A stretch of 64,000 nt of DNA from sequence record MZ779063.1; one strand, given 5' to 3'. Shown piece by piece: positions 2,028 through 35,371 of this stretch (position 1 is the stretch's first letter; each line of letters begins with the position of its first letter). Below the pieces are notes generated by a model. It did no database searches. It saw nothing but the letters and a program-made list of their open reading frames with translations, and was not told where the DNA came from. This DNA comes from Staphylococcus phage vB_SauM-UFV_DC4. Both the position numbers and the translations under genes were made by a program.

Positions 2028-2072
2028 AATATATATTATAAGATTGTAGAATATTAAGAGCATGATATTCTA
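2028..2072 (+). promoter_or_regulatory. phage promoter-like motif (aaatatatattataag) followed by hairpin tagaatat..atattcta
   Basis: one of >=12 copies of ATATATTATAA motif followed by stem-loop upstream of plus-strand genes. Confidence 0.45.
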
Positions 2073-2109
2073 TAAATATATTCATTATTATAGGAGAGTG
2101 TATTAAGAT

Positions 2110-4251
2110 ATGACAAAAGACAAAACACAAAGAATGGTAGAAATTGAAGATAAGCGAAGTCATGAGTTTTTATCAGAACCTCTATTAATGCCTAATGTTA
2201 ATAGAACTAATGGTAACAGATCTCAAATGTTTACATCTCACATTGGTCAATGTATTCAATTAACTGGAGCTGAACCACCTTTGATTCAAACTGGTTTTGA
2301 AAATCAAGTAGGTAAATATTCAACTGGATACAAAAAAGCTAATAGAGATTTTGAAGTTATTTATAAATTTGAAAAGAATAAGTACGTTAATTACTATTTA
2401 ATTAAGTACAAAGATAATGATGAATATGATGTAATTATTAGAGAAGAAGCTAATCATTTAGCTGAGAAGTTCGGAAATAAATATAATAATGATGAAATTG
2501 ATAAACTAAAAGTTGGAGATACAGTTAGTAAAGAAACTGTATTATTTAAGGATCAAAACTATGATGAAGATAATAATTTCCAATATGGTGCTAATGCAAC
2601 TTCTGTATTCTTACCATTCAAAGGCATGACGAATGAGGACGGAATTGTAGTATCAGAATCATTAGCAGAGAAAATGTCAAGTTATTTTGTAAATGTAATC
2701 AATATCACTATCAATACAAACGATATTCCTTTAAATTTATATGGAAATGAAGATGAGTATAAATCATTTCCAGATGTAGGTGAAGAAGTTCAAAATGGAG
2801 TATTGTGTGCAACTCGTAGATTGAATTACGATGAGATTATTCATAAATTTAAAAATGAAATGCTTACTAAAACATTAGAAGATGATAATGCTTATAAAGT
2901 TCACGGTAAAGTTATTGATATTGATGTACTTAATAATGAAGATATTGAAAAATTAGAAAATCAAAAATATTCAGAGCAATTTGTTAAGTATATTAAAGAA
3001 TTAAGACACTTTTATAAAACATTTGTAACTGTTACAGATGATATTGTACGTAAAAAGAAATTTAGTAATGATTTAATTAGAATTCATAATAAATTTAAAG
3101 GTTATATTGATAATAATGCTAAATTAGTTTATGATAATAATCAATTTGATAAAATCATCTTCAGAGTTAAAGTTTTAGAAAAGAAACCTTTAGTTCATGG
3201 ATCGAAAATCACCACACGCTATGGGGGTAAAGGAGTCGTAGCTGAAATTGTACCTGATGATCAAATGCCAATGATCACAGAGTTCGATGGAGAAGACTTC
3301 ACTAAAGATTCTACTAAAACACCAATTAGTAAACGAGTAGATTTAATCCATAATAATATGGGTATCATTAACCGTGGAAATCCATCAGCTTTAATTGAGT
3401 TAGAATTAAATCATGTATCAAATGTAATAAGACATCGTATAAGTAAATTAGATGATGTTAATCAACAGAAAGAATATCTATTAGGATATATTAAAGATGT
3501 AGATAAAATTTCATATGATAATTATGTTAAATTATTTAATCAATTAGATTTATCTGAAACTAAAGAAGCTATTAATGAAATTATTAAAGAAGGTATTGTA
3601 TTACATCAAGCACCATTCTTTGGTAATATTGATTCAGAACAATTAAGATACGTATTTAATAAATATAATATTAAGAAAAATAGATTAAACATAAGTAATA
3701 GAACGTTCATGGTTGGAGATTTATATCACTTAAAACTTAAACACGAACCCTCAGGGAAATTAAGTGCAAAATCTCTAGACTTTAACAATTACAGTGGAAT
3801 ACCTACTAGAACCCCTGATAGTAAAAAGTACTTGTCAAGAATTAATAATAATCCACTCAGAATTGGCGAGATGGAAACGTCTAATATGATGATCGGTGGA
3901 TCTATTAAAGCAATCAATCAATTAACGAATATGTATTCAAATAACCCAGATATGCGTAAACGTTTATTAGTTGAATTGTATACAGGTAATCCATTTAAGA
4001 TTAATACAGAGAGTATACAAAAACGAACTCAAAATAATAATACTAAAGTACTTAATGCTTACTTTAGTCCATTGAATGTTAGTATGACATTTGATGAACC
4101 TGAAGAAGATGAATTACTAAATATTATGGATTTAAATGAAGATCAATTAGAATTCTTAATGGAAAAATACGAAAATTTAGATGATATCAATGATTTAACA
4201 CCTCAAGAAATAAATGGTTTAGTTAAAGAAATTATTGAAGAAAGTAAATAA
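2110..4251 (+). CDS. multisubunit RNA polymerase beta-subunit, C-terminal segment (split rpoB-like)
   Basis: TRYGGKGVVAEIVPDDQMPM...DLIHNNMGIINRGN matches RpoB RHGNKGVISKINPIEDMPY...VDIVLNPLGVPSRMN; NPLRIGEMETSNMMIGG matches GGQRFGEMEVWALEAYG. Confidence 0.8.
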   Translation: MTKDKTQRMVEIEDKRSHEFLSEPLLMPNVNRTNGNRSQMFTSHIGQCIQLTGAEPPLIQTGFENQVGKYSTGYKKANRDFEVIYKFEKNKYVNYYLIKYKDNDEYDVIIREEANHLAEKFGNKYNNDEIDKLKVGDTVSKETVLFKDQNYDEDNNFQYGANATSVFLPFKGMTNEDGIVVSESLAEKMSSYFVNVINITINTNDIPLNLYGNEDEYKSFPDVGEEVQNGVLCATRRLNYDEIIHKFKNEMLTKTLEDDNAYKVHGKVIDIDVLNNEDIEKLENQKYSEQFVKYIKELRHFYKTFVTVTDDIVRKKKFSNDLIRIHNKFKGYIDNNAKLVYDNNQFDKIIFRVKVLEKKPLVHGSKITTRYGGKGVVAEIVPDDQMPMITEFDGEDFTKDSTKTPISKRVDLIHNNMGIINRGNPSALIELELNHVSNVIRHRISKLDDVNQQKEYLLGYIKDVDKISYDNYVKLFNQLDLSETKEAINEIIKEGIVLHQAPFFGNIDSEQLRYVFNKYNIKKNRLNISNRTFMVGDLYHLKLKHEPSGKLSAKSLDFNNYSGIPTRTPDSKKYLSRINNNPLRIGEMETSNMMIGGSIKAINQLTNMYSNNPDMRKRLLVELYTGNPFKINTESIQKRTQNNNTKVLNAYFSPLNVSMTFDEPEEDELLNIMDLNEDQLEFLMEKYENLDDINDLTPQEINGLVKEIIEESK

Positions 4252-4259
4252 AACAAATT

Positions 4260-4291
4260 GGAGTAATGATCATTATTTTGATCATTACTCC
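4260..4291 (+). terminator. stem-loop (ggagtaatgatca..tgatcattactcc), possible terminator/processing site
   Basis: 13-bp perfect inverted repeat after rpoB-like gene; weak T-tract. Confidence 0.35.
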
Positions 4292-4305
4292 TATATTTAA
4301 AGGAT

Positions 4306-4860
4306 GTGTTTAAAATTTATCCTGATTATGATGAATTTTTAAAGAAAGAGTTGGATCGCTTTGGAATTGATACAGATAACGTAGCTTATCATTCTAATAT
4401 TAATTATCGTTATTGTAAAGAGGAATTAGAATCACTTGAAAAGGAAGTTGAAGAAATGGAAATTAATTATTTGAATTTAGAAGATATATCTTTAAATAAA
4501 GAAGAGACAAGTGGAGTTATGACTATAAGAGAATTAGTAAATACTATTGATCACTTGATATATACAGAAAATGAAGTTACACCTTTATACTACTTCTTTA
4601 TGGATAAAATTGATTCACTTCCTATGATTAATATGATTACTTATAAAAAGGCAGCTAACACATTCTATGAAGAATATAAAAGATATAACACTGAAAATCA
4701 TTCAGCTTATATAAATATTAAAGGAGAATGGAAACAGTTATCATTTAATCAATTTAAAGAATCTTTAAAAGAAGTTTTATTATCTTCACATAAAGAAAGC
4801 AATGTTGATAAATTATTTAAAGAGTTAAATAATTTAGCTGTAAAAGATAATTTTTCATAA
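4306..4860 (+). CDS. hypothetical protein (start uncertain, GTG in track)
   Basis: 184-aa ORF, no in-frame ATG near start; no SD at proper spacing. Confidence 0.45.
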   Translation: MFKIYPDYDEFLKKELDRFGIDTDNVAYHSNINYRYCKEELESLEKEVEEMEINYLNLEDISLNKEETSGVMTIRELVNTIDHLIYTENEVTPLYYFFMDKIDSLPMINMITYKKAANTFYEEYKRYNTENHSAYINIKGEWKQLSFNQFKESLKEVLLSSHKESNVDKLFKELNNLAVKDNFS

Positions 4861-4887
4861 TTGCTCTTAGATCAAAATTAGTAATAA

Positions 4888-4937
4888 GCATATATTATAA
4901 ATATGAGACAATGTTCATTAACTTGATCATTGTCTCA
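4888..4937 (+). promoter_or_regulatory. promoter-like motif gcatatattataaatatg + hairpin tgagacaatg..cattgtctca
   Basis: motif copy; hairpin overlaps the ORF-track start of the next gene, arguing the true start is downstream. Confidence 0.45.
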
Positions 4938-4967
4938 TATATTGTTTTATTTTTTATAAATAAGGAG

Positions 4968-6857
4968 ATGAATTGGATAATGGAAAATAATACATTAAAT
5001 TCGTATATAAAGGAAGATTTTAAATATTTTAAAGATGATAAATTAGAAATTGATGAAATATTTAACTTTAAAGATGATAAGACTAAAGAAAAATTTGAAA
5101 CGTTTTTTAATGGAGTTATATACACATTGAAAAATTTGAATTATGTTGAATTATCTGAAATGTATAATGAATCAATTAAAGAGAAAGGTAATACTCAAGT
5201 TAAAGCTGAAAGTTATATAGATTATTTAAATAATGAATTGAAAAATAAAAGACTAAATAAAGAAACTAAAAAACTTTATAAAGATTTATTAATGACTTTA
5301 GAAGATGATTTGAAAAGATATAATGCTAATTTAGATGACAGCATTATAAATAAATTATTCAAAAATAAGTATATATCAATATCTTATTATAGTTTAATAG
5401 TACCGTATAATATTGCTAACGAAATTGAATTTAATAAAAACTATTATAGTTTTCTTGAATTAGAAGATTTTGTTAGATTCATAGTATTTCCGTATTATCA
5501 GCTTTTATATCTATCTAAAGATAATTTAAGAAATATTTATATAAAGAATACAGATATAAATCTTCATGATTATTTTATTGATATAATAAAGAGTTATATT
5601 AAAAATTTAATAGATAATAAAGATGTAGATACACTAAAGGATTTATTAGATGTGTTAACAAATGAGCACGAATATCTAAGATCCCCAAAATATACAGACT
5701 ATAGAAAAGGTAATGGTAGAAATTTATTTGAGTTGCTAATAGATATGAATTTCAATGAATTTAAAGACTTATTATATGAAATGATATATATTATAATGAA
5801 TAATAATCTAAAAAAAGAATTACAAGTAGAAATGAATTATGATATATACAAACACAATATATTTTTAATAAGTTTAATGAATGATGAAGTAGAAAGTCAT
5901 AGACAACCTAAATTTAATGATAAATTTTTAATAGAGAGTAATAATACAATTAGAGCTACTGCAAGTGCAGATTTATACAGTAAAAATAATTACTACCAAA
6001 ATAACTTATTAGGTCACTATATTAATGATCTATATGTAAATAAAAATAAAATAAATAAATTTAAAAGGGTTAATAAAGTTAGAAGTCTTAAATCTTTTAT
6101 TTATTTAACTAACCAAAGATGCATTATCGGTGGTGAGTCATATTATAAATATCTATATAAATATTTATTTGATCCAAGTAACTTAACTAGAGAAGAGTTT
6201 GAAGTATCTACATTATTAATTAAATTGATAACTTGTAAGTCTAGTAATCAATTAAAGAAAGTTATGGAGAATGCAAAAACCAACTCTATATTAAATAATC
6301 TTTTATTTGAAACAGAAATTAATGATATAATTAAAATTGGTATAGAAATGAATATTAATACTATATTCAATGAAAAGGGTTTAAGTAAAATTAATACAGT
6401 TGATTTAACTGTAGGAAATATTGTAAAACCTTTGTTATATAATAACGCAAATGATTATGAAGAACAAACAGAAATCATTAATTCAATATTTAAAAATTTT
6501 ACTTATGATATAGATATCAATTTTGATAAATATCATTATAAAGATTTAGATGAATATTTTGAAAGTAGATTAAATTTAGGTCTTTTAAAAGAATCAAATA
6601 TAGATATTAGTATTAATATTAATTATAGTAAAATTGCAAAAACTATTGTAAATAATATTAAAGATAAACTTAGAGGAAAATATGATTTTGAAAAGAATGA
6701 GTTTATTATTACTTATGATAAGATGAATATTACTCGTTTAACTTCTACAGAGTTTTGTAATGGGTTATGTGAATATTTAAGTAAATACTTCCCAGAAGAA
6801 GCTAAAAAGTTAAATAAGAGTTTTAGAGCTGAAATTGTAAATACAATGTTTAGATAG
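4968..6857 (+). CDS. hypothetical N/K/Y/I-rich protein (start ATG 4968 or 4979)
   Basis: long ORF; AAGGAG at 4962-4967; ORF-track start 4911 lies inside upstream hairpin. Confidence 0.5.
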   Translation: MNWIMENNTLNSYIKEDFKYFKDDKLEIDEIFNFKDDKTKEKFETFFNGVIYTLKNLNYVELSEMYNESIKEKGNTQVKAESYIDYLNNELKNKRLNKETKKLYKDLLMTLEDDLKRYNANLDDSIINKLFKNKYISISYYSLIVPYNIANEIEFNKNYYSFLELEDFVRFIVFPYYQLLYLSKDNLRNIYIKNTDINLHDYFIDIIKSYIKNLIDNKDVDTLKDLLDVLTNEHEYLRSPKYTDYRKGNGRNLFELLIDMNFNEFKDLLYEMIYIIMNNNLKKELQVEMNYDIYKHNIFLISLMNDEVESHRQPKFNDKFLIESNNTIRATASADLYSKNNYYQNNLLGHYINDLYVNKNKINKFKRVNKVRSLKSFIYLTNQRCIIGGESYYKYLYKYLFDPSNLTREEFEVSTLLIKLITCKSSNQLKKVMENAKTNSILNNLLFETEINDIIKIGIEMNINTIFNEKGLSKINTVDLTVGNIVKPLLYNNANDYEEQTEIINSIFKNFTYDIDINFDKYHYKDLDEYFESRLNLGLLKESNIDISININYSKIAKTIVNNIKDKLRGKYDFEKNEFIITYDKMNITRLTSTEFCNGLCEYLSKYFPEEAKKLNKSFRAEIVNTMFR

Positions 6858-6873
6858 AAAGGGGAAATTAAAG

Positions 6874-7428: not shown

Positions 7429-7445
7429 AGGAGAGATAATATTTA

Positions 7446-8180: not shown

Positions 8181-8197
8181 ATAGGAGTGAATAGGAT

Positions 8198-14166: not shown

Positions 14167-14177
14167 AACTCAATTTA

Positions 14178-14227
14178 AATATATATTATAAAATTGTGAA
14201 AGATGTATGATATTTATACATCTTTCT
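14178..14227 (+). promoter_or_regulatory. promoter-like motif aaatatatattataaaattg + hairpin gaaagatgtat..atacatctttc
   Basis: motif copy with downstream stem-loop. Confidence 0.45.
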
Positions 14228-15707: not shown

Positions 15708-15922
15708 TGTTTGAAGAAAGTAAAGTACCATTTTCATTTATTTATAAAGAAACTAAATATTTCCTACACAGAAGAAATATTAAGAATTTCCCTAATGGAG
15801 ATTCTGAATTCTTATTGTATGGAGATGAAAATGGGAAGTCATTCATAATAGAAGAAAGTAAATTAGAAAACTTAATTGAACAACATGAAGTTGAAGTATC
15901 TTACGAAGAAGATATTATTTAA
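15707..15922 (+). CDS. hypothetical protein
   Basis: 71 aa, TAATG overlap coupling with upstream gene. Confidence 0.4.
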   Translation: MFEESKVPFSFIYKETKYFLHRRNIKNFPNGDSEFLLYGDENGKSFIIEESKLENLIEQHEVEVSYEEDII

Positions 15923-15970
15923 ATATATATTATTAAATTGAGGTAATGACATATTATTTGTCATTACCTC
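15921..15970 (+). promoter_or_regulatory. promoter-like motif aaatatatattattaaattg + hairpin gaggtaatgaca..tgtcattacctc
   Basis: motif copy; 12-bp perfect stem. Confidence 0.45.
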
Positions 15971-16726: not shown

Positions 16727-16768
16727 AAAATGCCATAATACACAATTTAAGTGTATTATGGCAAATTA
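16727..16768. terminator. bidirectional terminator (tgccataataca..tgtattatggca)
   Basis: 12-bp inverted repeat flanked by A-run upstream and T-run downstream, between convergent genes. Confidence 0.5.
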
Positions 16769-17072: not shown

Positions 17073-17134
17073 TTTATTAGTTCCTTTCCATATAATATAT
17101 TTTTAATTTTTTTAGAAAATTGTTAATATTTTAC

Positions 17135-17163
17135 TAGCTTTTTTCTAAATTTTATGATATAAT
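17135..17163 (+). promoter_or_regulatory. sigma-A-like promoter with extended -10 (tagcttttttctaaattttatgatataat)
   Basis: near-identical to the 581-609 element; TGaTATAAT. Confidence 0.4.
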
Positions 17164-20915: not shown

Positions 20916-21968
20916 ATGTCCAAATATGATTTAACTTTATATCATCATTTAAAACAAGAAGTAAAACCATGTAGATTAACAACTTCACAGGATGAGACAA
21001 TGATACGTTGTCCATTCTGTGGAGATTCTAAAAAATCTAAAAGTTCAACACATTTATATATACAAAATAGAACTCCATTTAAATATTTCTGTCAAAGATG
21101 TAATGCTTCCGGAGTTATGAGTAATAAAGTTTTAGCTATGTTAAATAGTGGTAATGTAGAAATAAATAGTTATATTAATAATCAATATAATGAATATATT
21201 TCTAATATGAATAAAAAGTATGGTAAATCTTTTATCAATAGAAATACAAAGGAATTAAAATACTACCCAAATAAATATACCGATTTAGAAATAAGCAAGA
21301 TTAATTATATTAATGAAAGATTGGGTATTAACATAGATGAGAAGGATATTGAATTATATAAGATTATTTTAAATATAGAAGATTTTTATAAGAATAATGA
21401 ATTTGATATAGATAATCAATATCAAATAAATAATCTTAATAATAATTATTTTAGTTATATGTTGAACGATAAGAACACTATTAATTGTAGATTAATGAAT
21501 AGTGACACATTTGGGGCTAATGGGAAGAAACATTTTAAACAAAAAATATTTAAGAATTTAGCTGATGAAAGTACTAGATTTTATTCAATTAAAAATGAAT
21601 TAAGATTGGATAGAAGAGTATATAATATTCATATAGCTGAAGGATTCTTTGATATATTGGGGATATTTAATCATGTGTATAATAAAGAAATAAATGACAA
21701 TGATATATTTATAGCTAATAACGGAAAAGGTTATAAATTTGTATTAAATTATCTAAATAGTTTAGGTATACTTAATATGAATATAAATATTTATTCCGAT
21801 AGAGATGTTAAAATTACTGATTATCGCAGTAAGAGAATGCTCGGTAATTCGCTACCAGTAATTTTAAATGATGCTAATATATATTATAATGAATTTGAAG
21901 ATGAGAAAGATTTTGGGGTAACAAAAGATAAAATAAAATTATCAGAACCAATTAAGTTTAATCAATAA
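20916..21968 (+). CDS. DnaG-type DNA primase (zinc ribbon + TOPRIM)
   Basis: CPFCGDS..17..CQRC zinc ribbon; TOPRIM HIAEGFFDILGIF (cf. DnaG VEGYMDV) and YSDRDV DxD motif. Confidence 0.6.
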   Translation: MSKYDLTLYHHLKQEVKPCRLTTSQDETMIRCPFCGDSKKSKSSTHLYIQNRTPFKYFCQRCNASGVMSNKVLAMLNSGNVEINSYINNQYNEYISNMNKKYGKSFINRNTKELKYYPNKYTDLEISKINYINERLGINIDEKDIELYKIILNIEDFYKNNEFDIDNQYQINNLNNNYFSYMLNDKNTINCRLMNSDTFGANGKKHFKQKIFKNLADESTRFYSIKNELRLDRRVYNIHIAEGFFDILGIFNHVYNKEINDNDIFIANNGKGYKFVLNYLNSLGILNMNINIYSDRDVKITDYRSKRMLGNSLPVILNDANIYYNEFEDEKDFGVTKDKIKLSEPIKFNQ

Positions 21969-21970
21969 AT

Positions 21971-22018
21971 AAATTTATATTATAAAAGTGAGGTAATGGA
22001 TATTATATTCATTACCTC
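21971..22018 (+). promoter_or_regulatory. promoter-like motif aaatttatattataaaagtg + hairpin gaggtaatgga..ttcattacctc
   Basis: motif copy; same stem family as 15940-15970 with compensatory change. Confidence 0.45.
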
Positions 22019-23216: not shown

Positions 23217-23948
23217 ATGATTGAAGAAGCTTTTAAATTGAATTTCATAAGTCTAATATTAAATATACCTTACTTTTTAATATCAATTTACTTATTTTAT
23301 TATTTTTATACTTACAAGAAAATTAAAAATAATAAAGATGATATATACGATGTAGCACCAGTAGCTTTTACAAGTTATTTGAGTATAATAATTATAATTA
23401 TACTCAAATTATCTACTAATAGTTTATCTCAATATGGTAATTTGATATATCATCCTTTTAAAATATTTACTTTAATTATAGTAGGTTTGATGATGTATGT
23501 TGTACTGGATGCTTCATTATTTATATTTGATAAGATGAAAAGCTCATTAAAGATATTCATTGTATTGAATATCTTTTTAATTGCATTATTAATATCTGAT
23601 TCATTATTGTTTAATATGATTATTATGATAGTTATATCAATTCTATTAATTTTGACTTCATTATACTTTACAGTTGATCATTTAGATAGTAAAGATAAAT
23701 ATGTAAAAATAACTTTTTGCACATTCTTTACTTTATTCCCTCTATTTTTATCACTGTTAGTTATAAATATGGATGTAATTAAATTTAACTTAATAGATGT
23801 TAATACTAATAATAAAATTGATAATATGCATTTAGTTATAATTGTGCAAATAATTTTACTAATATGGAACTTAGCAGTAATGATATTCAAAATATTTAAT
23901 ATCAATATATACACCGTTATATCAGAAGTATTTAAAAGAAATAAATGA
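23217..23948 (+). CDS. polytopic membrane protein (~7 TM)
   Basis: 243 aa, repeated hydrophobic helices; AAGGAGGA SD. Confidence 0.55.
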   Translation: MIEEAFKLNFISLILNIPYFLISIYLFYYFYTYKKIKNNKDDIYDVAPVAFTSYLSIIIIIILKLSTNSLSQYGNLIYHPFKIFTLIIVGLMMYVVLDASLFIFDKMKSSLKIFIVLNIFLIALLISDSLLFNMIIMIVISILLILTSLYFTVDHLDSKDKYVKITFCTFFTLFPLFLSLLVINMDVIKFNLIDVNTNNKIDNMHLVIIVQIILLIWNLAVMIFKIFNINIYTVISEVFKRNK

Positions 23949-23950
23949 AT

Positions 23951-24010
23951 ATTAGGATAATGATCAAATTAATGGTCATTATCCTAATATTATTTTCTTT
24001 TTTTTGTAAC
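23951..24010 (+). terminator. rho-independent terminator (aggataatgatca..tggtcattatcct + T9)
   Basis: 13-bp stem followed by tttctttttttt. Confidence 0.6.
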
Positions 24011-24059
24011 TACTATTATTTTAGATATATATTATAATTATGAAGGGAGGAATATAATA

Positions 24060-24305
24060 ATGATATTTAATATTCTAATAGCAATTGCATATGAGATGCT
24101 TGTTTCTTTAGGTTTAGGTGTTTCAGCTTTTTATATATCTTTATTTTTATTAAGATATATAAAAAATAATATTATCAAGAAAGAAATTAAAAATGAAAAT
24201 AGAAAGTTATTTTATTTTTCATTATTAATAGTTATAATATTTATGTCAATAAAATCATACGTTGATATAAAATTAAGTATTATAGAACAAATATTGAAAA
24301 TGTAA
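24060..24305 (+). CDS. small membrane protein (2 TM)
   Basis: 81 aa; preceded by motif agatatatattataattatgaag and GGGAGG SD. Confidence 0.45.
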   Translation: MIFNILIAIAYEMLVSLGLGVSAFYISLFLLRYIKNNIIKKEIKNENRKLFYFSLLIVIIFMSIKSYVDIKLSIIEQILKM

Positions 24306-24400
24306 AAAGCGTAACATAAGATATTTTAATTATATATTATAATTATGAAGATATAATAATATTAATTATATCTTTAATAAAAATAAAGGAGAAATTAAAA
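24304..24400 (+). repeat. copy 1 of ~95-bp cassette (aaagcgtaac..atatattataattatgaag + hairpin + SD)
   Basis: highly similar to 25337-25420 and 26034-26133 by direct comparison. Confidence 0.6.
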
Positions 24401-24715: not shown

Positions 24716-25348
24716 GTGGTATGTATGATTAAAGTCAATGAGCTATTAACAGAAGTTAAGGAAATAAAAACAAATGACAGTTATACGAAATTAATAAATG
24801 AGTATAGAGATATTATTAATGAAGAATATATATCTTATAAACCGTTAAAAGATTATTACAATTTTATTATATATTATCTAGAGAAATCTAGAAATCAAGC
24901 ATTGGAATCTAACAACTTTAATGAATCCAATTTAAATATCAAATTATTAATAGAAGATCTAATGATATTAAAAGATATTGTTAAATCTAATATTTTTGAT
25001 ACTAAAGAAGTAATCAGATCTACTGGGTTTAAATTAACAAATGGTAGTACATTTGATAGAGTTATCAAATACATTAAAGATAAACTAGATGAATTAATTA
25101 TAGAAATAAATTCAAATAATTATAAATATCAAAATATCTATTTCTATCTACCTGAACTAAATAATCTATTGCATAATACAATTCATATAGAACGTGTTTT
25201 AGATAAATATAAGAATAATGTAGATATTATTAATATAAATAAATATAATTTATTTGAAATGATGCCTTGTAATGATATTATGGATAAAGATGAATTTTAT
25301 ATAATGGTTAATCATTTATATGATTTAGGTGTTTTAGAAAAAGCGTAA
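24716..25348 (+). CDS. hypothetical protein
   Basis: 210 aa; preceded by ttctatgatccaa element. Confidence 0.5.
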   Translation: MVCMIKVNELLTEVKEIKTNDSYTKLINEYRDIINEEYISYKPLKDYYNFIIYYLEKSRNQALESNNFNESNLNIKLLIEDLMILKDIVKSNIFDTKEVIRSTGFKLTNGSTFDRVIKYIKDKLDELIIEINSNNYKYQNIYFYLPELNNLLHNTIHIERVLDKYKNNVDIININKYNLFEMMPCNDIMDKDEFYIMVNHLYDLGVLEKA

Positions 25349-25420
25349 CATGTAATAAAATAAGTATATATTATAATTATGAAGAAAGATAAAGTATTAA
25401 TATCTTTCTAAATAAATCAA
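25337..25420 (+). repeat. copy 2 of promoter/hairpin cassette
   Basis: gaaaaagcgtaacatgtaa..aagtatatattataattatgaagaaagata..tatctttc..ggaggaatttaaa. Confidence 0.6.
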
Positions 25421-25606
25421 ATGGAGGAATTTAAAATGAAAAAGAATTTATTATTAAAATCAGCAGTGGGATTTGGGTTAGGTATTGTATTAGGTGTAGT
25501 AAGTAATAAAATTGATGAAATGGTTATGCAGAAGGAAATGGAAAAGCAAATCTTTAAAAGAGCTTCAGAAATAACTTTTGAACATCCATTCAATAATCTA
25601 AAATAA
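25421..25606 (+). CDS. small membrane peptide (MEEFKMKK..GFGLGIVLGVV..NLK)
   Basis: 61 aa, single TM; paralog of 26134-26238 and 26850-27059. Confidence 0.45.
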   Translation: MEEFKMKKNLLLKSAVGFGLGIVLGVVSNKIDEMVMQKEMEKQIFKRASEITFEHPFNNLK

Positions 25607-26033: not shown

Positions 26034-26133
26034 TTTGAAAAAGCGTAACGTAAGATATTTTAATTATATATTATAATAATGAAGAAAGAGATTATCATTA
26101 ACTCTTTCTAATAAATTAAAAGGAGAAATTATT
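26034..26133 (+). repeat. copy 3 of promoter/hairpin cassette
   Basis: gaaaaagcgtaacgtaagatattttaattatatattataataatgaagaaagag..ctctttc. Confidence 0.6.
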
Positions 26134-26238
26134 ATGAAAAACTTAGTATTGAAATTAGTAGCAGGATTTGGATTAGGAATTGTGATGGCAGTTGTTTTAG
26201 ACAAGATTGAAGAAATGACGTTCTCTAATTTAAAATAA
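26134..26238 (+). CDS. small membrane peptide (MKNLVLKLVAGFGLGIVMAVV..SNLK)
   Basis: 34 aa, not in ORF track; SD AAAGGAGAA; paralog of 25421-25606. Confidence 0.4.
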   Translation: MKNLVLKLVAGFGLGIVMAVVLDKIEEMTFSNLK

Positions 26239-28472: not shown

Positions 28473-28503
28473 AAAATAAATAAAAAGAATAGAGGAAAAT
28501 AAA

Positions 28504-28980: not shown

Positions 28981-29000
28981 TTATTAAGGAGTGTTGATGA

Positions 29001-29246
29001 ATGATTAAAACAGAAACAAAAAATGAACATTTATTTTTCAAATTTATTTCAGAATTAGGACTAACTAACGTGTATGATAACTTTATTGTAAGTGTTCCTT
29101 CAGGTCCTAAATTCATTAGATTAAATGAATTTGATGAAATAGAAGTATATGAAAAATGTAATGAAAATTTACTGAAAGTAGTCAATATAGATCCTAAATT
29201 TGATGATGTATTTTCGTTATTTTTCAAAATAACGAAAGGAATTTAA
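29001..29246 (+). CDS. hypothetical protein
   Basis: 81 aa; AAGGAGTG SD. Confidence 0.45.
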   Translation: MIKTETKNEHLFFKFISELGLTNVYDNFIVSVPSGPKFIRLNEFDEIEVYEKCNENLLKVVNIDPKFDDVFSLFFKITKGI

Positions 29247-29252
29247 AATATT

Positions 29253-29304
29253 ATAGTCATGAATCTATTTATGTAGATTCATGACTATTAATTATATATT
29301 TTTT
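29253..29304 (+). terminator. rho-independent terminator (atagtcatgaatctat..atgtagattcatgactat)
   Basis: long stem, downstream T-run. Confidence 0.5.
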
Positions 29305-29324
29305 TATAAATATAAGAAAGAGAG

Positions 29325-30026
29325 ATGACATTAATTGTGTATGAAATTTCAATAGCTTTAATGTTTTTAATTGTAATATATTTTTCATTCAATACAATAT
29401 ATAAAACATTAGTAAGTGCGTATAACGAAAAATTAAAAGGAAAGTTCTTTTCCACAACGTTTTTTACATTTAGTTTATTATTTCCAATAATGATTATTGT
29501 ATTTTACAATATAGATGGAATAAATATTAAAATAGAATATGTTTTATTTTATTTCCTGTTGTTAATAATTAACTTTGCATTAAATAAATTTCTTAAAGTT
29601 CATGATATTATAGTATATACGTCATTATTCTATTCTTTATTTATAATGAATTACCATTATGAAATAGCTAATGACTTATATTTTGCTATATTTATTGTAA
29701 TAATCAATTTGATAATTCCATTAATTAAAATTGAATTTCAATTAATTGAAATGGCAATTCAAACTGATGGAGAATATAAAGATATAGATGTAAAAAAGAA
29801 TATAGTAAGACAGAATTTAAAAATAGTTAATTTAAATGATAATAATACACAATTCTCATTAGATGATTTTCTTGAAAGTAAATTTAATAATGATGAAGAA
29901 TCAATAAGTGTCTTCTTAGATGAAATGATTGAAAGAATATATTCTGAAAGAATAAATATAAAATTGTATTGTTATCATATATTAATGGGATTATTAACTA
30001 TATACTTTTTATTATCTCAAATTTAA
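29325..30026 (+). CDS. membrane protein (~5 TM) with soluble C-terminal domain
   Basis: 233 aa, hydrophobic N-terminal two-thirds. Confidence 0.5.
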   Translation: MTLIVYEISIALMFLIVIYFSFNTIYKTLVSAYNEKLKGKFFSTTFFTFSLLFPIMIIVFYNIDGINIKIEYVLFYFLLLIINFALNKFLKVHDIIVYTSLFYSLFIMNYHYEIANDLYFAIFIVIINLIIPLIKIEFQLIEMAIQTDGEYKDIDVKKNIVRQNLKIVNLNDNNTQFSLDDFLESKFNNDEESISVFLDEMIERIYSERINIKLYCYHILMGLLTIYFLLSQI

Positions 30027-30067
30027 ATATATATTATAAAAATGAGTAATATTAATTAATATTACTC
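30025..30067 (+). promoter_or_regulatory. promoter-like motif aaatatatattataaaaatg + hairpin gagtaatattaa..ttaatattactc
   Basis: motif copy. Confidence 0.45.
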
Positions 30068-30091
30068 AAAAAAAATAAAGGAGTTTTTATC

Positions 30092-30622
30092 ATGGAAAAT
30101 AATTATTATGCAGTTGCACAGTTCCAAAATCAAAGAGAGTTTAAAGGAAAAGAGTATATTTATAAAGTGCCAGAATATTTATTAACGAAAGAAAATTCTT
30201 ATTTCCACAAATACGCATTAGTTTCTAATTTAAATTTAAATGAAGTTAATTTAAATGATGATGGAGTTCATAAAGATGATTTAGAAAAATTTGCAAGTTC
30301 AGTTAAAGTTGTTAAAGTATTAAAAATTATGAATGAAGAAGAATTTATACAATCAGAATATGTAAACTCTGCAGAGGATTTAAATCAAAGAATTAATCGA
30401 GAAGGAGAATCTTTTGAATATAAAAATATCGTATCATTCTTCGATAATGAATTAAAAACACATATTGATTATATTTCTGAAAGTAACAGAAAAGAAAAAT
30501 TAGAAAAATTAATGAAAATCAGAATGGAAAAATTAAATAAAGAAAAGGACTTAAAAGAAAGAGTAAGTGAATATAACGATAAAGAATTAGATAAATTATT
30601 TATCGAATATAAAAAATTATAA
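30092..30622 (+). CDS. hypothetical protein
   Basis: 176 aa, AAAGGAG SD. Confidence 0.5.
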   Translation: MENNYYAVAQFQNQREFKGKEYIYKVPEYLLTKENSYFHKYALVSNLNLNEVNLNDDGVHKDDLEKFASSVKVVKVLKIMNEEEFIQSEYVNSAEDLNQRINREGESFEYKNIVSFFDNELKTHIDYISESNRKEKLEKLMKIRMEKLNKEKDLKERVSEYNDKELDKLFIEYKKL

Positions 30623-30630
30623 ATACATTA

Positions 30631-30666
30631 TCCCAATGAGATGAATTATTCTCATTGGGATTATTT
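30631..30666 (+). terminator. rho-independent terminator (tcccaatgaga..tctcattggga)
   Basis: 11-bp stem plus T-rich tail. Confidence 0.5.
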
Positions 30667-30694
30667 AATTACTTAATTAGGAGATGAAAAGGAT

Positions 30695-31525: not shown

Positions 31526-31540
31526 GGAGTTGAAACGGAT

Positions 31541-32038
31541 ATGTTAAAAAATAAAAATATTGAAATTAACCAAGATATTATTAATAATGAATTAATGAAA
31601 ACAAAATATATGGAAGAGGCGATGTTAAAAGTGTTAAATCAAGACCTAGTAATCAATTTAAGATTTTTAAAAGATAATCTACTATCTGGATGGGAATTTG
31701 AAAATAATGTAGCTGAATTTAAAGAAATAGAAAAATTCTATGATCCGTCATTAAAAATAAGACTAATTTTTAAAGTTAATGAAAAAGAAATCAAGTATAC
31801 ACTTAATGAAGATATTCAAGATATGTTAGAGAATTTCATGATTAAGAAAGCTGATGATGAAAGAGCATGTGAGATTATTAAATCTGTTATTGAGTATGAA
31901 TTCTTTAAGAAAGAAAATAAAAAAGATCATGAACTTGATATGAATACAATAGATTTATTAATGGGTAAAGTTAATGAATTAAAAATTAAATACAATATCA
32001 GTAATAAACAAGCTAAGAAATTATATATAGCATTTTAA
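31541..32038 (+). CDS. hypothetical protein
   Basis: 165 aa. Confidence 0.5.
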   Translation: MLKNKNIEINQDIINNELMKTKYMEEAMLKVLNQDLVINLRFLKDNLLSGWEFENNVAEFKEIEKFYDPSLKIRLIFKVNEKEIKYTLNEDIQDMLENFMIKKADDERACEIIKSVIEYEFFKKENKKDHELDMNTIDLLMGKVNELKIKYNISNKQAKKLYIAF

Positions 32039-32063
32039 AATATAACTAAAGAGAGGTAATTTC

Positions 32064-32690
32064 ATGAGAAACACAGTGAATATATTTGATTGGTATATCT
32101 ATAAAAATGGAGAATATACAATGATTCCTTTCTTCTTCAGATTAGCTTCAGGATTATTAATATTAATTGTATTCTCATCTTTAATTGCAATTAATATTAA
32201 ATTATCTTTTATATCATTAATGATAACAATTCCAACATTTTTAATAATTAATCTATTAATTTATTTATATTTTAATAAAAATTGTCTTAGAGAATATGGA
32301 GAAATAAATAAATCTTTTAAAGTGAAAGATAAATATTATTCTTTTTGGTATATTGAATTAAATGAAGATAATGAGGTTTTTAAAGAAGCTTTTAATAATT
32401 TTAAAAATGAACACGAATGGATTATAGAAGAAGAAAATATAAAAAATCTATCAGAAATACTGTCACAAAAATTTTTTATAAAAGACACTAAAATAGTAGA
32501 GACTGTAGCGAGAGAAAAAAGAAAACATTGGAAGAACAATATTGACACTAATAGACTGATAACTTATAGAGAGTTTCTTAAATATAGAAAGAATAAAAAG
32601 AAATTTGAAGAGTCTAAGAAGTTAGAAAAGGAAATAAAAGAGTTTCAAGATTATTACAATTTAAACACTAAAGGAGAAATTAAAAAATGA
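32064..32690 (+). CDS. membrane-anchored protein (2 N-terminal TM)
   Basis: 208 aa; ATGA overlap with next gene. Confidence 0.5.
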   Translation: MRNTVNIFDWYIYKNGEYTMIPFFFRLASGLLILIVFSSLIAINIKLSFISLMITIPTFLIINLLIYLYFNKNCLREYGEINKSFKVKDKYYSFWYIELNEDNEVFKEAFNNFKNEHEWIIEEENIKNLSEILSQKFFIKDTKIVETVAREKRKHWKNNIDTNRLITYREFLKYRKNKKKFEESKKLEKEIKEFQDYYNLNTKGEIKK

Positions 32691-33151
32691 ATACTAAAAT
32701 AATCGCAGCATTTCCGGGTACAGGTAAATCTTACATCAAAAATAATATCTCATTCTTAAAAACATCTGATTCAGATTCAACTAGTTTTTCATGGATAATT
32801 AAAGATGGAGAAAAAGTTAGAAATCCTAAATTTCCAACGAATTATATTAGTTATATTAAGGATCTCTATTATAAAAATGTAATGGATTATATTTTCGTAT
32901 CAACTCATAAAGAAGTTATCCAAGAGTTGATTGATAATAATTTAGAATTTGTAGTAGCTTATCCAAAACGTTCAGATAAAGAATTATATTTAAAGAGATA
33001 CAAAGAAAGAGGTTCAGATAGTAAATTTATTGAGCTTCTTGATAATATGTTTGATAGTTTTATAGATGATATAGAGAATAGAGTTCCTGAAGAAAACAGA
33101 ATTGAACTTAATCATAATGAATATTTAGCTAACGTATTAGATAAAATTTAA
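32687..33151 (+). CDS. small P-loop NTPase / nucleotide-kinase-like protein
   Basis: Walker A AAFPGTGKSY near N-terminus; 154 aa. Confidence 0.5.
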   Translation: MNTKIIAAFPGTGKSYIKNNISFLKTSDSDSTSFSWIIKDGEKVRNPKFPTNYISYIKDLYYKNVMDYIFVSTHKEVIQELIDNNLEFVVAYPKRSDKELYLKRYKERGSDSKFIELLDNMFDSFIDDIENRVPEENRIELNHNEYLANVLDKI

Positions 33152-33168
33152 ATAAGGAGAAATTAAAA

Positions 33169-33627
33169 ATGAGATACTTTAAAGGTATAGTAGCAGGAAA
33201 AGACTTTTTCTTAAAAGCAGATAATGAAGAAAATGCCATTAAGGAATTAGCATCAAAAGAAATTAATTCTATAGGATCTTTTACAATGTTAAGTAATGAA
33301 AAACAGAAATACCTAATAATTTTCTTTAATGAAGATGAAGATAAATTTGTTGTTGGAAATGGATTAGAATCATATATATCATTAGACAGTCTTAAATCTG
33401 AATTAGAATCTAAAGATTTAGAATGTTATTATTTAGATTTAGGTAATACAGATAATATCGAGATAAACGGTATTATAAAAAATCAAGAATACACATTAAC
33501 AGAAATAATAATGGAAAGTATTAAATTAACTATGAATGATTTTTATCAACAAGTTATAAATTCTGTATTAACTGAATTAACTGAAAAAGAATACAAAAAT
33601 TCAATAGTTGTTAAAAATTTTAAATAA
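33169..33627 (+). CDS. KENFK-family protein
   Basis: ends TEKEYKNSIVVKNFK. Confidence 0.55.
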   Translation: MRYFKGIVAGKDFFLKADNEENAIKELASKEINSIGSFTMLSNEKQKYLIIFFNEDEDKFVVGNGLESYISLDSLKSELESKDLECYYLDLGNTDNIEINGIIKNQEYTLTEIIMESIKLTMNDFYQQVINSVLTELTEKEYKNSIVVKNFK

Positions 33628-33646
33628 CTAGGAAGGAATAGAAATA

Positions 33647-34117
33647 ATGAGAAATAAAAAAAGAAGCATAGATAGTTTGATAAATAATAATCTAGAATTA
33701 CCAATTGAGATTACTGAAAATTATATAAATAATTTTATATACAAATCATTAACTGCTATAAATAAGAAAAAAGAAATAAAACCAAATCAAACTTATATAA
33801 TTAATCATAAGAATGAATTATTTAATAAAGCAGATAATTTCATAAATTGTATTTTAGAATTATTAAAAGGTGATGTGGGTACTTTAATAGATAAAAAAGA
33901 TTTAAAGTTAAAAAGAAATGTAAAGAAAGACAATATAAGTAATTGTCTTACAATATATACTATTGTAGAAACTTTAACTTACAATAATTCTATAACAATG
34001 ATGATGGTAAAAAATGTAAATAATACCAATAAGGAAGTAACTGGTGAACTAATATTTGATATTAATATAAGTGATAAATTAGGTAAAGATAATTACAATG
34101 AAAATATTTATATTTAA
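33647..34117 (+). CDS. hypothetical protein
   Basis: 156 aa. Confidence 0.45.
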   Translation: MRNKKRSIDSLINNNLELPIEITENYINNFIYKSLTAINKKKEIKPNQTYIINHKNELFNKADNFINCILELLKGDVGTLIDKKDLKLKRNVKKDNISNCLTIYTIVETLTYNNSITMMMVKNVNNTNKEVTGELIFDINISDKLGKDNYNENIYI

Positions 34118-34127
34118 TTACTATTTA

Positions 34128-34150
34128 AATATATATTATATAAATGAAGT
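34128..34150 (+). promoter_or_regulatory. promoter-like motif aaatatatattatataaatgaag
   Basis: motif copy (no obvious hairpin). Confidence 0.4.
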
Positions 34151-34172
34151 TAATTAAAATACAGGAGATGAA

Positions 34173-34520
34173 TTGGATATGTTAAACGATACTAAAAAAG
34201 TTTTAGACAGAATATATGACAAAATAAATGGTGATTTAATTGTTATTTCAGAGTGTAAAGATCTATTTGATAAGGAATTAAATTACACTTTAACTGAAGG
34301 TAATGAAGAAACAACAAATCTTGATTATTTGGCAGATTCTTTAATTGTAGTTTCTTCAGATATATTTACTTTAAATGAAGTACTTAATATTGATGAAGAA
34401 ACTATTAATAATGAACTATTAGCAGAATTTAAACTAAGCTATAGAATGATACAGAATTTTCATATGAAATTAGAATTAAAAAAATATAAATTAAAAAAGA
34501 TTAAAACCTCGGTTGAATAA
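34173..34520 (+). CDS. hypothetical protein
   Basis: 115 aa. Confidence 0.45.
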   Translation: MDMLNDTKKVLDRIYDKINGDLIVISECKDLFDKELNYTLTEGNEETTNLDYLADSLIVVSSDIFTLNEVLNIDEETINNELLAEFKLSYRMIQNFHMKLELKKYKLKKIKTSVE

Positions 34521-34539
34521 ATATAGGAGATGATTAGGA

Positions 34540-35025
34540 ATGAATTATTTAAAGAATGAAAAAGGGGAGGTCTTTCCAGTCAATGAAGAAGGAATGGAGA
34601 ATATCATATTCTTTCTTCTAGACTACTCACAGAAAAATGATTATAACACAATGAATTTGATTAAAGAGATAAATGATCACGTGATGAAAGGCGAAAATAT
34701 AAGTAATGAATTTATTAATGAAAAAACAAAAGAAACGATATTAACTTTAGGTAAAGTAAAAGGTAATTTAACTAATGAATTAGCTAGAAGTGGTTATATA
34801 GTTAATTTCTCTAGAAATAAAATATCACTATCGATATATGTAAAAAATAATAGTTTTAAATTAGTAAGAATTTCAGATCATAATATTAATAAAAAAATAA
34901 ATAAAAAAGGTGTAATCAGTAATAGATTTGACGGACAATTAGTATGTAAAAATAATCTAGTTAAATCTTCTGATTTGAAAAAGCATGGAATTGATATTAA
35001 TGAAGGAATATATTATTTAGAATAG
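34540..35025 (+). CDS. hypothetical protein
   Basis: 161 aa. Confidence 0.45.
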   Translation: MNYLKNEKGEVFPVNEEGMENIIFFLLDYSQKNDYNTMNLIKEINDHVMKGENISNEFINEKTKETILTLGKVKGNLTNELARSGYIVNFSRNKISLSIYVKNNSFKLVRISDHNINKKINKKGVISNRFDGQLVCKNNLVKSSDLKKHGIDINEGIYYLE

Positions 35026-35026
35026 G

Positions 35027-35320
35027 ATGAAACTATATATGAAAAAGATAATAATGTTTTTAGGTATTTTGTTACTAACAACGGTATTGGTCGGTTGTGG
35101 AGAAAGTGTTGATTCAAAAGATAAAAAAGATTCAATCAAAACAGTAACTATTTATAGTAAAGGCGGTAAAGTATTACATCAATATGAAGGAAAAGTTAGT
35201 GCTGAGAGAGTAACGGATAACAAATTTACTAAAATTGATATAGACGGTAAGAAATTAAGAGTTGTAAATGCAGATGTAGTTATTGAAGAAAAAGGTATTG
35301 AGAAATTTGAAACAAAATAA
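35027..35320 (+). CDS. lipoprotein (lipobox LVGC)
   Basis: MKKIIMFLGILLLTTVLVGCGES. Confidence 0.55.
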   Translation: MKLYMKKIIMFLGILLLTTVLVGCGESVDSKDKKDSIKTVTIYSKGGKVLHQYEGKVSAERVTDNKFTKIDIDGKKLRVVNADVVIEEKGIEKFETK

Positions 35321-35325
35321 AGATT

Positions 35326-35371
35326 AAGTATATATTATAATTATGAAGAAAGATATTATCATATATCTTTC
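35326..35371 (+). promoter_or_regulatory. promoter-like motif aagtatatattataattatgaag + hairpin gaaagatat..atatctttc
   Basis: fourth copy of the cassette seen at 24.3-26.1 kb. Confidence 0.45.

Follow-up and report, generated by a model that had tools for sequence, protein, structure and literature searches.

An AR9-like early promoter of Staphylococcus jumbo phages is frequently coupled to a stem-loop at the predicted mRNA 5' end

Most copies of an early-type promoter motif in a Staphylococcus jumbo phage are followed at once by a hairpin of variable sequence. In the window, by which we mean the whole 64,000-nt stretch of Staphylococcus phage vB_SauM-UFV_DC4 (MZ779063.1) that was analysed, the motif and where it lies, the hairpin and the register in which it starts, the conservation of the structure and its strand can be observed directly. 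Judging by the start site known from Bacillus phage AR9, early mRNAs from about three quarters of these promoters would start directly with a stem-loop. We consider it somewhat probable that the 5'-terminal stem-loop shields early mRNAs from 5'-end-dependent decay by RppH and RNase J1/J2. The promoter has been described before, but its regular association with a hairpin appears not to have been reported; neither the AR9 paper (PMC5312081) nor the MarsHill preprint (bioRxiv 10.1101/2020.12.14.422802) mentions a hairpin or stem-loop.

Results

The window comes from a phage that is 97–98% identical to S6 and PALS_2, both related to AR9. Its motif is (T)TAAATATATATTAT-N6-G, with the conserved unit TTAAATATATATTAT-N6-G and the core TATATTAT. 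The consensus of 34 S6 sites, tTTTAAATATATATTATAAaAAT-G, carries no information at –35 and matches the AR9 virion-RNA-polymerase early promoter AAATATATATTAT-(6N)-G(+1), which was mapped by dRNA-seq and primer extension and is early and independent of protein synthesis (PMC5312081). For the sister phage MarsHill, MEME predicted the same TATATTAT motif 5' of 29 genes, and MarsHill-like phages encode both vRNAP and nvRNAP (bioRxiv 10.1101/2020.12.14.422802). The sequence-only reading had proposed an AR9-like early promoter lacking a –35 element, and this agrees with our data: the core AAATATATATTAT and the 6-nt spacing to G are the same in the AR9/PBS2 early promoters (Lavysh et al. 2017, PMC5312081) and in the window. 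In both phages, which belong to the same family, the –35 element is absent and the genes that follow the copies are co-oriented and of early type, an nvRNAP subunit gene among them. Judged by its sequence, the motif is the already known AR9-like jumbo-phage early promoter and is not novel in itself; start site, timing and polymerase of the window promoters are predicted from their identity to the mapped AR9 promoters.

Across the whole window TATATTAT-N6-G matches 15 times, versus 4.7 ± 2.1 in shuffles, and WTATATATTAT-N6-G matches 9 times, versus 0.53 expected. The pattern as first described, ending in TGAAG, gives 32 matches with up to three mismatches (15.3 ± 4.1 in shuffles), 5 of them exact. 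The bare 10-mer ATATATTATA with at most one mismatch is not enriched in the window (104 versus 104), so the signal resides in the full-length motif. The pattern first described is real as a full-length element, but TGAAG, made up of position –1 and transcribed bases +1 to +4, holds for a subset of copies only, and the unit is better given as TTAAATATATATTAT-N6-G. Of the 15 TATATTAT-N6-G matches, 13 fall in non-coding DNA, which makes up 7.4% of the window, just 5' of co-oriented genes. There are 13 full copies, 12 on the plus strand (at least 12 had been claimed) and 1 on the minus strand, and all lie 18–75 nt 5' of a start codon in the same orientation. Early genes form long co-directional arrays with many internal promoters.

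Four plus-strand loci had been described as motif plus hairpin, and all four are present as described. The first (2024–2073; core 2032–2039, predicted +1 G at 2046) has a hairpin at 2046–2073 (11 bp, 6-nt loop; z = –3.2) with covariation, and lies directly 5' of the nvRNAP beta subunit gene 2110–4251 (Pfam RNA_pol_Rpb2_6; ∼39% identity to the AR9 counterpart). The second (4883–4936; core 4891–4898, +1 at 4905, hairpin 4905–4936; z = –4.0) precedes a gene starting at 4980. The third (14174–14226; core 14182–14189, +1 at 14196) has its hairpin at 14198–14226 (13 bp, 3-nt loop; z = –3.9) and has orthologues, and the fourth (15918–15970; core 15926–15933, +1 at 15940) at 15940–15970 (12 bp, 7-nt loop; z = –5.9). 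This fourth promoter overlaps the stop codon of the preceding gene.

Six more plus-strand copies carry a hairpin. They are found at 21968–22018 (core 21976–21983, +1 at 21990, hairpin 21990–22018 of 13 bp with a 3-nt loop; z = –4.5), 24325–24375 (core 24333–24340, +1 at 24347, hairpin 24347–24375, 11 bp, 7-nt loop; z = –2.9), 25359–25409 (core 25367–25374, +1 at 25381, hairpin 25383–25409, 9 bp, 9-nt loop; z = –1.3), 26059–26109 (core 26067–26074, +1 at 26081, hairpin 26083–26109; z = –2.1), 30022–30067 (core 30030–30037, +1 at 30044, hairpin 30044–30067, 10 bp, 4-nt loop; z = –4.6) and 35323–35372 (core 35331–35338, +1 at 35345, hairpin 35347–35372, 10 bp, 6-nt loop; z = –4.1). The copy at 25359–25409 lies 5' of a small ORF (25436–25606), and the copy at 26059–26109 precedes a very small ORF whose start is at 26134. 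A mosaic junction is seen at +3/+4 of the promoter starting at 30044. Two plus-strand promoters have no hairpin: 24020–24062 (core 24028–24035, +1 at 24042), with the Shine-Dalgarno sequence GGGAGG from +4, and 34124–34170 (core 34132–34139, +1 at 34146), with a Shine-Dalgarno at +18, whose orthologues in PB50, AH12 and SA1 have a 6-bp hairpin at +1.

Minus-strand copies had been reported upstream of HU and of genes ending at 56574 and 58820. The last of these is a full match (58836–58883; core 58875–58868, +1 at 58861, 5' of gene 58820–58014), but it has a weak stem only (58861–58836, 7 bp, 12-nt loop; z = –0.4). The other two are unconvincing, as the HU copy has A instead of G at +1 and is not conserved in LY01, PB50, AH12 and SA1, and the copy 5' of 56574 has C at +1.

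The hairpin is thus commoner than first listed: counting perfect stems of 8 bp or longer that start within +1 to +3, 10 of the 13 window copies have one (8–13 bp, beginning at +1 or +3), against a background of 3.4% (binomial P = 4.6e–13), and leader-fold z-scores of the hairpin copies span –1.3 to –5.9. Genome-wide in S6, the hairpin accompanies 25 of 34 promoters (P about 1e–29) and is missing from 7 of 34, some hairpin-less promoters being conserved across phages. A set of 56 unique promoter sequences drawn from nine phages includes 46 with a stem of 8 bp or more. The register is tight: stems of 7 bp or more occur in 48 sequences, and 38 of them begin at +1, 2 at +2 and 8 at +3. Stems range from 7 to 14 bp and loops from 3 to 14 nt.

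Where a promoter follows a stop codon, the hairpin is the first structure 3' of the upstream gene, which might give it a second role as a 3'-end or processing element. One alternative is a promoter-coupled terminator or insulator, which would end or 3'-stabilise upstream transcripts, leave each early gene driven by its own promoter and perhaps attenuate its own transcripts. Most promoters do abut the stop codon of the preceding gene, with no other hairpin in between; evident terminator hairpins are common between genes of the phage genome, at a similar distance to the next Shine-Dalgarno; the hairpin 21990–22018, alone among the +1 hairpins in 14–31 kb, is also picked up by a simple terminator scan on the sense strand; and the phage RNAPs may have termination requirements of their own. 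However, the stems are not followed by a T-tract (mean 3.5 T in the next 10 nt versus 6–8 T at 6 of 9 annotated terminators of MarsHill and Machias), and a terminator needs no register of exactly +1 to +3 and would, 30 nt past its own promoter, abort its own transcripts. Separate classic hairpin-plus-T-run terminators are present, e.g. at 23948–24008, 5' of the promoter 24020–24062, and the promoter starting at 2046 has an upstream terminator-like hairpin as well as the +1 hairpin. In divergent intergenic regions, which receive no upstream co-directional transcription, the hairpin is kept at 4 of 6 S6 early promoters. We regard this role as unlikely.

Selection on structure, already suspected from the sequence-only reading, holds up, and it appears to act on sense RNA. 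A single S6 genome contains 20 distinct stem sequences. Pairing in the orthologue group of the promoter at 2046 is 98.5%, with two pairs altered on both sides, and the hairpin 15940–15970 shows a compensatory C-G to U-A change in the PB50 orthologue. Variable columns make up 52% of loops versus 17% of stems (∼3-fold), and two diverged gene alleles at the promoter starting at 30044 each have their own different hairpin at the same position. Among the stem positions that are not Watson-Crick pairs there are 26 G·T and 0 A·C, although orthologous copies and the invariant G at +1 inflate the G·T figure; presence of the one and absence of the other points to pairing in the sense RNA. In 47 of 48 cases the sense strand also folds more stably than the antisense strand.

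The same data bear on a possible role of the inverted repeats in DNA, either as operators through which a dimeric regulator would turn early promoters off or as cruciform/hairpin promoter elements like those of the N4 virion RNAP. Perfect palindromic arms do adjoin the promoter and stem sub-families recur (e.g. GAGGTAATGA and GAAGAAAGA), but no half-site common to the 20 stems was found, loops differ in length (3 to 14 nt), tolerance of G·T and never of A·C indicates pairing on the sense strand only, and the hairpin, unlike N4 promoters, is variable and lies 3' of +1. Such a role is highly improbable.

Discussion

We propose that each copy is an AR9/PBS2-type early promoter, TTAAATATATATTAT-N6-G, that would be read by the phage multisubunit virion RNA polymerase injected along with the DNA, transcription beginning at the conserved G. 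RNase J1/J2 5'-exonuclease is present in S. aureus (PMC3937233), and RppH (RNA pyrophosphohydrolase) and RNase J1/J2 require a single-stranded 5' end (PMC3997798). A base-paired 5' terminus would be a poor substrate for RppH and for the host 5'-to-3' exonuclease, and the hairpin would for this reason lengthen the lifetime of early phage mRNA while leaving ribosome binding unblocked. The leader layout fits: the Shine-Dalgarno lies 10–23 nt 3' of the stems and never within a hairpin, and the 10–23 nt in between are A-rich and unstructured. In most hairpin-less promoters the Shine-Dalgarno is found at +1 to +23, in several at +1 to +5, a pattern that is partly trivial since loss of a 28-nt hairpin shortens the leader. 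Among the roles suggested earlier, the 5'-UTR stabiliser fits best, an RNase site is possible as a complement, and the terminator is disfavoured.

In AR9 the hairpin is found at 0 of 23 annotated early promoters; transcripts start with GAUA/GUAA and run straight to the Shine-Dalgarno (median ∼+17) with no 5' structure. In contrast, ∼75% of early promoters in the Staphylococcus clade have a hairpin at +1 to +3. Protection of the 5' end is thus not an obvious necessity, since the AR9 host B. subtilis has the same RNase J1/RppH machinery.

The nascent hairpin might instead act on transcription, by aiding promoter clearance of the virion RNAP or release of RNA from the AT-rich (dU-containing) hybrid, or by making the elongation complex resistant to terminators, as put RNAs of HK022 do. 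The fixed +1 register links structure to initiation, the hairpin is confined to one promoter class and is clade-specific, and long co-directional early arrays contain many terminator-like hairpins. Yet AR9 promoters of identical sequence function without it, it is missing from the hairpin-less S6 promoters noted above, and non-conservation of stem and loop sequences argues against a specific RNAP contact. We find this explanation improbable.

Quite improbable too, though it would complement 5' protection, is a role as a processing guide, in which an endonuclease (for example S. aureus RNase Y) would cut read-through polycistronic RNA a few nucleotides upstream and release downstream cistrons that are again hairpin-protected. 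Early genes do lie in long arrays with internal promoters, and in S. aureus saePQRS a double-stranded element directs an RNase Y cut 6 nt upstream, setting the fate of RNA just upstream and stabilising the downstream fragment (PMC5449607). That element is a 24-bp duplex inside the operon, away from the transcription start, whereas the promoter-linked stems are 7–14 bp long and begin at +1; such short stems are also poor RNase III substrates. A processing guide leaves the tie to +1 and the presence at divergent promoters unexplained.

Stabilisation by a 5'-terminal stem-loop has precedents in E. coli ompA and papA, the B. subtilis aprE leader and ermC-type 5' stabilisers (reviewed in PMC3997798). 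As in the window, the stem-loop lies a few nucleotides from the 5' end and the Shine-Dalgarno is free downstream. Those precedents concern single cellular genes whose half-life effects have been measured, whereas here we see a trait that a single class of phage promoter shows genome-wide, with stems of many unrelated sequences and a presumed stabilising effect. The phage T7 gene 10 leader differs in its single-subunit RNAP, late (class III) promoter, GC-rich stem and Gram-negative host with RNase E-based decay. Its 5' stem-loop is stabilising, and its layout is shared with the window: the phage-RNAP promoter phi10, a hairpin from +1 (GGGAGACC...GGUUUCCC, +1 to +21), a spacer that is AU-rich and unstructured, and a strong Shine-Dalgarno.

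Probable early promoters of the AR9 type

As far as identity is concerned, the motif repeated in the window is very probably an early promoter of the AR9/PBS2 type, read by the virion RNA polymerase (vRNAP). AR9 early promoters, mapped by dRNA-seq and primer extension, fire without protein synthesis and have the consensus AAATATATATTAT-(6N)-G(+1) (PMC5312081). The window copies combined with 34 copies from the complete genome of phage S6 yield tTTTAAATATATATTAT, which matches the AR9 core centred near –10, and the logo of the 34 S6 sites reads tTTTAAATATATATTATAAaAAT-G-A. All 13 window copies and all 34 S6 copies have a G, the predicted +1, at the AR9 spacing of six nucleotides after the core. 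The likeness to AR9 promoters suggested by the sequence-only reading holds for both sequence and spacing; the boundary of the hairpin discussed below falls at this G. The 'TGAAG' that had been taken for a part of the motif corresponds to position –1 and the four bases predicted to be transcribed first. The motif itself was already known, because a TATATTAT motif upstream of 29 MarsHill genes has been equated with the AR9 early promoter (bioRxiv 10.1101/2020.12.14.422802). The missing –35 element is borne out by an information content of about zero from –50 to –24 at the 34 S6 sites. A host sigma-A promoter was rejected, since this upstream information is lacking and a sigma-70-type scan found no excess of matches (162 versus 157 expected).

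The window (24% GC) is 97–98% identical across tens of kilobases to the Staphylococcus jumbo phages S6 and PALS_2; MarsHill, Madawaska, LY01, SA1, PB50, AH12 and Machias are progressively remoter relatives, and together these phages belong with the Bacillus phages AR9 and PBS1. In AR9-like phages, early genes are served by a multisubunit RNA polymerase packaged in the virion, and late genes by a second enzyme that the phage produces (PMC7598289). The gene at 2110–4251 encodes the beta subunit of the non-virion enzyme (nvRNAP), with a Pfam RNA_pol_Rpb2_6 match and 39% identity to the AR9 subunit; vRNAP genes, reported in MarsHill-like phages (bioRxiv 10.1101/2020.12.14.422802), fall outside the window.

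In AT-rich DNA the core says little. With up to one mismatch the bare 10-mer ATATATTATA is not enriched in the window at all (104 matches versus 104), while TATATTAT-N6-G occurs 15 times versus 4.7 ± 2.1 in shuffles and WTATATATTAT-N6-G nine times versus 0.53, so the signal is the full-length unit including the G. The pattern as originally proposed, allowing up to three mismatches, gave 32 matches versus 15.3 ± 4.1 in dinucleotide shuffles of the window, five of them exact. Thirteen of the 15 TATATTAT-N6-G matches fall in the non-coding 7.4% of the window, and all 13 have a co-oriented start codon 18–75 nt downstream, a few start codons having been corrected by S6 annotation before distances were taken. 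Twelve are on the plus strand between 2 and 36 kb (predicted +1 at 2046, 4905, 14196, 15940, 21990, 24042, 24347, 25381, 26081, 30044, 34146 and 35345), which agrees with the earlier estimate of at least 12 copies, and one is on the minus strand at 58.9 kb (58861). No early promoter was found by the window scan in the 40–56 kb block of large minus-strand genes, annotated in relatives as putative tail fibre and viral capsid protein. Three minus-strand copies had been proposed and only that of the gene starting at 58820 stands. In the copy that precedes the gene starting at 56574 the +1 position is C. The copy that precedes HU (17072–16770) has A there and is absent from LY01, PB50, AH12 and SA1; the HU leader does contain TATATTAT (17092–17099, minus strand), but the conserved element there is instead ATTTT(T)CTAAA.

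A hairpin at the predicted 5' end of early transcripts

The 40–45 nt that follow the predicted starts were folded. At ten of the 13 promoters in the window a perfect stem of 8–13 bp begins at +1 or +3, compared with a background of 3.4% at random window positions (binomial P = 4.6e–13), and the four loci originally cited as motif plus hairpin (2028–2072, 4888–4937, 14178–14227 and 15921–15970) are as described. In whole-leader folds the 10 hairpin promoters score z-values from –1.3 to –5.9, and the weak minus-strand copy scores –0.4. In complete S6, stems of 8 bp or more are present at 25 of 34 promoters (background 3.5%, P about 1e–29), and the 27 promoters with stems of at least 7 bp have 20 distinct stem sequences. 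Syntenic regions of nine phages supply 56 distinct promoter-downstream sequences, of which 46 form stems of 8 bp or longer.

The hairpin keeps a fixed register. Counted relative to the predicted +1, 38 of the 48 unique hairpins of 7 bp or more begin at +1, two at +2 and eight at +3, leaving zero, one or two unpaired 5' nucleotides respectively, within the limit of about four expected of a 5' stabiliser. In the nine-phage set stems are 7–14 bp and loops 3–13 nt long. A Shine-Dalgarno (SD) sequence can be recognised in 47 hairpin leaders; in 46 of these it follows the stem at 10–23 nt (the one outlier is at 4 nt), and it is unpaired in most full-leader folds, that is, the ribosome-binding site is free as in known stabilisers. 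Most promoters lacking a hairpin have the SD at +1 to +23, several of them at +1 to +5.

We found no description of the hairpin in the AR9 paper, the MarsHill preprint, the DC4 paper, an RNA polymerase review or full-text searches of the open-access literature, where absence is not proof; the same literature yielded nothing relevant on hairpins of Staphylococcus jumbo phages or on protection of early phage mRNAs against RNase J. The promoter motif is known, and what is apparently undescribed is a putative 5' stabiliser stem-loop built into this phage promoter class.

Selection on structure of the sense RNA

That stems vary in sequence with pairing preserved, as had been noticed by eye, is confirmed by the diversity of S6 stems and by comparison of orthologues. 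For the orthologous stems that precede the nvRNAP beta gene, 98.5% of cells are paired, and two of 11 pairs are altered on both sides (G-C to A-U; U-A, A-U, G-C); when the partner is shifted by 1–3 columns, pairing falls to 27–58%. The PB50 orthologue of the stem at 15940 carries a double change, C-G to U-A. Across orthologue groups, loops have 52% variable columns, stems 17% and the promoter 8%; only these figures were taken from the ungapped comparison and its 'broken pair' counts were set aside, since several orthologues differ by indels.

At the promoter at 30044, four phages (this one, S6, PALS_2 and MarsHill) are near-identical across the promoter as far as +3 (30044–30200 compared). The sequences then part at a mosaic junction placed exactly at +3/+4, with two alleles beyond it that differ in hairpin, leader and gene, yet both retain a +1 hairpin, GAGTAATATTAATTAATATTACTC and GAGATTAATAATTTATTATTAATCTC. 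The conserved promoter may act here as a recombination joint for the exchange of gene cassettes.

Among the non-Watson-Crick stem positions there are 26 G·T but not one A·C (orthologous copies are counted in, and many of the positions involve the fixed +1 G), and the sense fold is better than the antisense one in 47 of 48 hairpins, orthologous copies included. Because G·T is tolerated without A·C and the sense strand folds better, the direction is clear: pairing is in the sense RNA and neither in an antisense transcript nor in a DNA cruciform. Structure is kept over sequence and on the transcribed strand, as in a 5' stabiliser. A DNA-hairpin promoter of the N4 type, with a hairpin of conserved sequence upstream of +1, does not fit: here the hairpin follows +1, its stems come in 20 different sequences with loops of 3–14 nt, and only the sense strand can pair.

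Termination and RNA processing

The sequence-only reading had also offered a non-canonical terminator coupled to a promoter, which fares less well. Ordinary terminators, a hairpin followed by a T-run, are present in the window (for example 23948–24008, 29253–29300, 30630–30675 and 35704–35750); equivalent ones are annotated in MarsHill and Machias, and none of these annotated ones coincides with a promoter hairpin. The 10 nt 3' of promoter hairpins contain on average 3.5 T, equal to the genomic average, versus 6–8 T for six of nine annotated terminators of MarsHill and Machias. In a simple terminator scan of the sense strand from 14 to 31 kb the only +1 hairpin to pass is that at 21990. An intrinsic (Rho-independent) terminator is disfavoured by the missing U-tract. 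In S6, six early promoters have a divergent gene upstream and therefore no co-directional transcription to stop; a hairpin is kept at four of them (start sites 50556, 44403, 141592 and 118596), the other two being 133608 (SD at +4) and 150665. Most promoters abut the stop codon of the upstream gene, so a partial or dual terminator role is possible.

An RNase III site like those of the T7 early region, with a duplex of roughly 20 bp or more, does not fit stems of 7–14 bp, and a search of the whole window against Rfam 15 at the gathering threshold returned no match to curated RNA families. The promoter hairpins could still have a complementary processing role. In the sae operon of S. aureus a double-stranded element directs RNase Y to cleave 6 nt ahead of it and makes the fragment downstream more stable (PMC5449607), and promoter hairpins in read-through RNA could by analogy guide RNase Y in the same way; they are, however, far shorter than the 24-bp sae duplex.

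Strong perfect hairpins are also seen between convergent genes (16731–16763, 40525–40558, 57975–58005 and 63407–63436) and look like bidirectional terminators. Many intergenic hairpins, terminators and +1 hairpins among them (4260–4291, 57975–58005, 23952–23990 and 15940–15970), have loosely similar arms, (G)GAGTAATGATCA, AGAGGTAACTATCA, TAGGATAATGATCA and GAGGTAATGACA; these may be a family of related modules or reflect convergent composition.

Distribution and proposed function

The hairpin is not common to all phages with this promoter. None of the 23 annotated early promoters of AR9 (150 kb) has a stem of 8 bp or more in the +1 to +3 register; mean folding energy is at background, and the SD has a median position of about +17. 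Listeria phage LPJP1 shows 5' pairing in two of six candidate promoters. A strict-pattern scan of IMG/VR returned mostly single chance hits in AT-rich contigs; only three uncultured contigs (L015, L021 and L026) look related, and in these pairing sets in at +1 or +4 behind the promoter. The hairpin is thus an elaboration found mainly in the Staphylococcus clade and not something that the promoter class requires; this, together with seven S6 promoters that lack it, argues against an obligatory role in initiation.

The T7 g10 5' stem-loop is a known stabiliser, and a fold of the T7 sequence shows the same layout at phi10: promoter, hairpin at +1 to +21, AU-rich spacer and SD. Judging by its anatomy, we somewhat favour, overall, the view that the hairpin is a 5' stabiliser of early mRNA. 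The stem would leave 0–2 unpaired nucleotides at the triphosphorylated 5' end, with the ribosome-binding site free downstream. B. subtilis RppH needs at least two unpaired 5' nucleotides and prefers three or more, and after its action RNase J degrades the 5'-monophosphate RNA exonucleolytically (PMC3997798); S. aureus has RNases J1/J2 (PMC3937233). At hairpin-less promoters the 5'-proximal SD might be an alternative form of 5' protection, an association that is partly trivial because leader length differs.

It is harder to argue for a clade-specific cis device, which we regard as improbable. In one version the hairpin would be a self-mark by which early phage mRNAs escape a phage-induced or host 5'-end-dependent clearance that would remove host mRNAs; in another, the vRNAP of the Staphylococcus clade would need it to free the transcript from an AU-rich hybrid with uracil-containing DNA. 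Either would make the hairpin more than a generic stabiliser.

Two related phage clades with the same promoter have different leaders, short with a 5'-proximal SD in AR9 and with a 5' hairpin in Staphylococcus phages, a natural experiment that sets S. aureus against B. subtilis in 5'-end-dependent decay. Start-site predictions are precise and testable (13 in the window, 34 in S6). Jumbo phages of this clade are therapy candidates, and the promoter-plus-hairpin module of about 50 nt, if its stabilising effect is confirmed, could become an expression part for S. aureus or for the engineering of these phages.

Other promoter-like elements

The S6 promoter at 150665 (LC680885.1, minus strand) has the full early consensus and is followed by AACCCCTAACCC, with no hairpin and neither an SD nor a start codon within 100 nt; the annotated gene begins 158 nt downstream, and the product may be a long leader or a non-coding RNA.

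A second promoter-like motif, CTAGCTTTTTT-N11-TG-N-TATAAT with an extended –10, is found at 566–609 and 17120–17163 (plus strand), upstream of a UvsX-like gene (655) and the nvRNAP beta/beta' operon (17264), and at 129700–129741 of S6. The block TAGC(A/T)TTTTTCTAA(A/G)TTTTATGATATAATA(T/A)TGTTATG is invariant in six phages with variable flanks. The motif may represent a host sigma-A promoter or another class of phage promoter.

Finally, the 11-mer AAAAGCGTAAC is repeated exactly three times on the plus strand (24305–24315, 25339–25349 and 26039–26049) in a run of small-gene cassettes, each time with the core of an early promoter some 17 nt further downstream; with up to one mismatch it has four matches versus 0.64 expected. 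The AAC(A/G)-N5-TA inside it loosely resembles the AR9 late-promoter consensus AACA-N6-TA/G.
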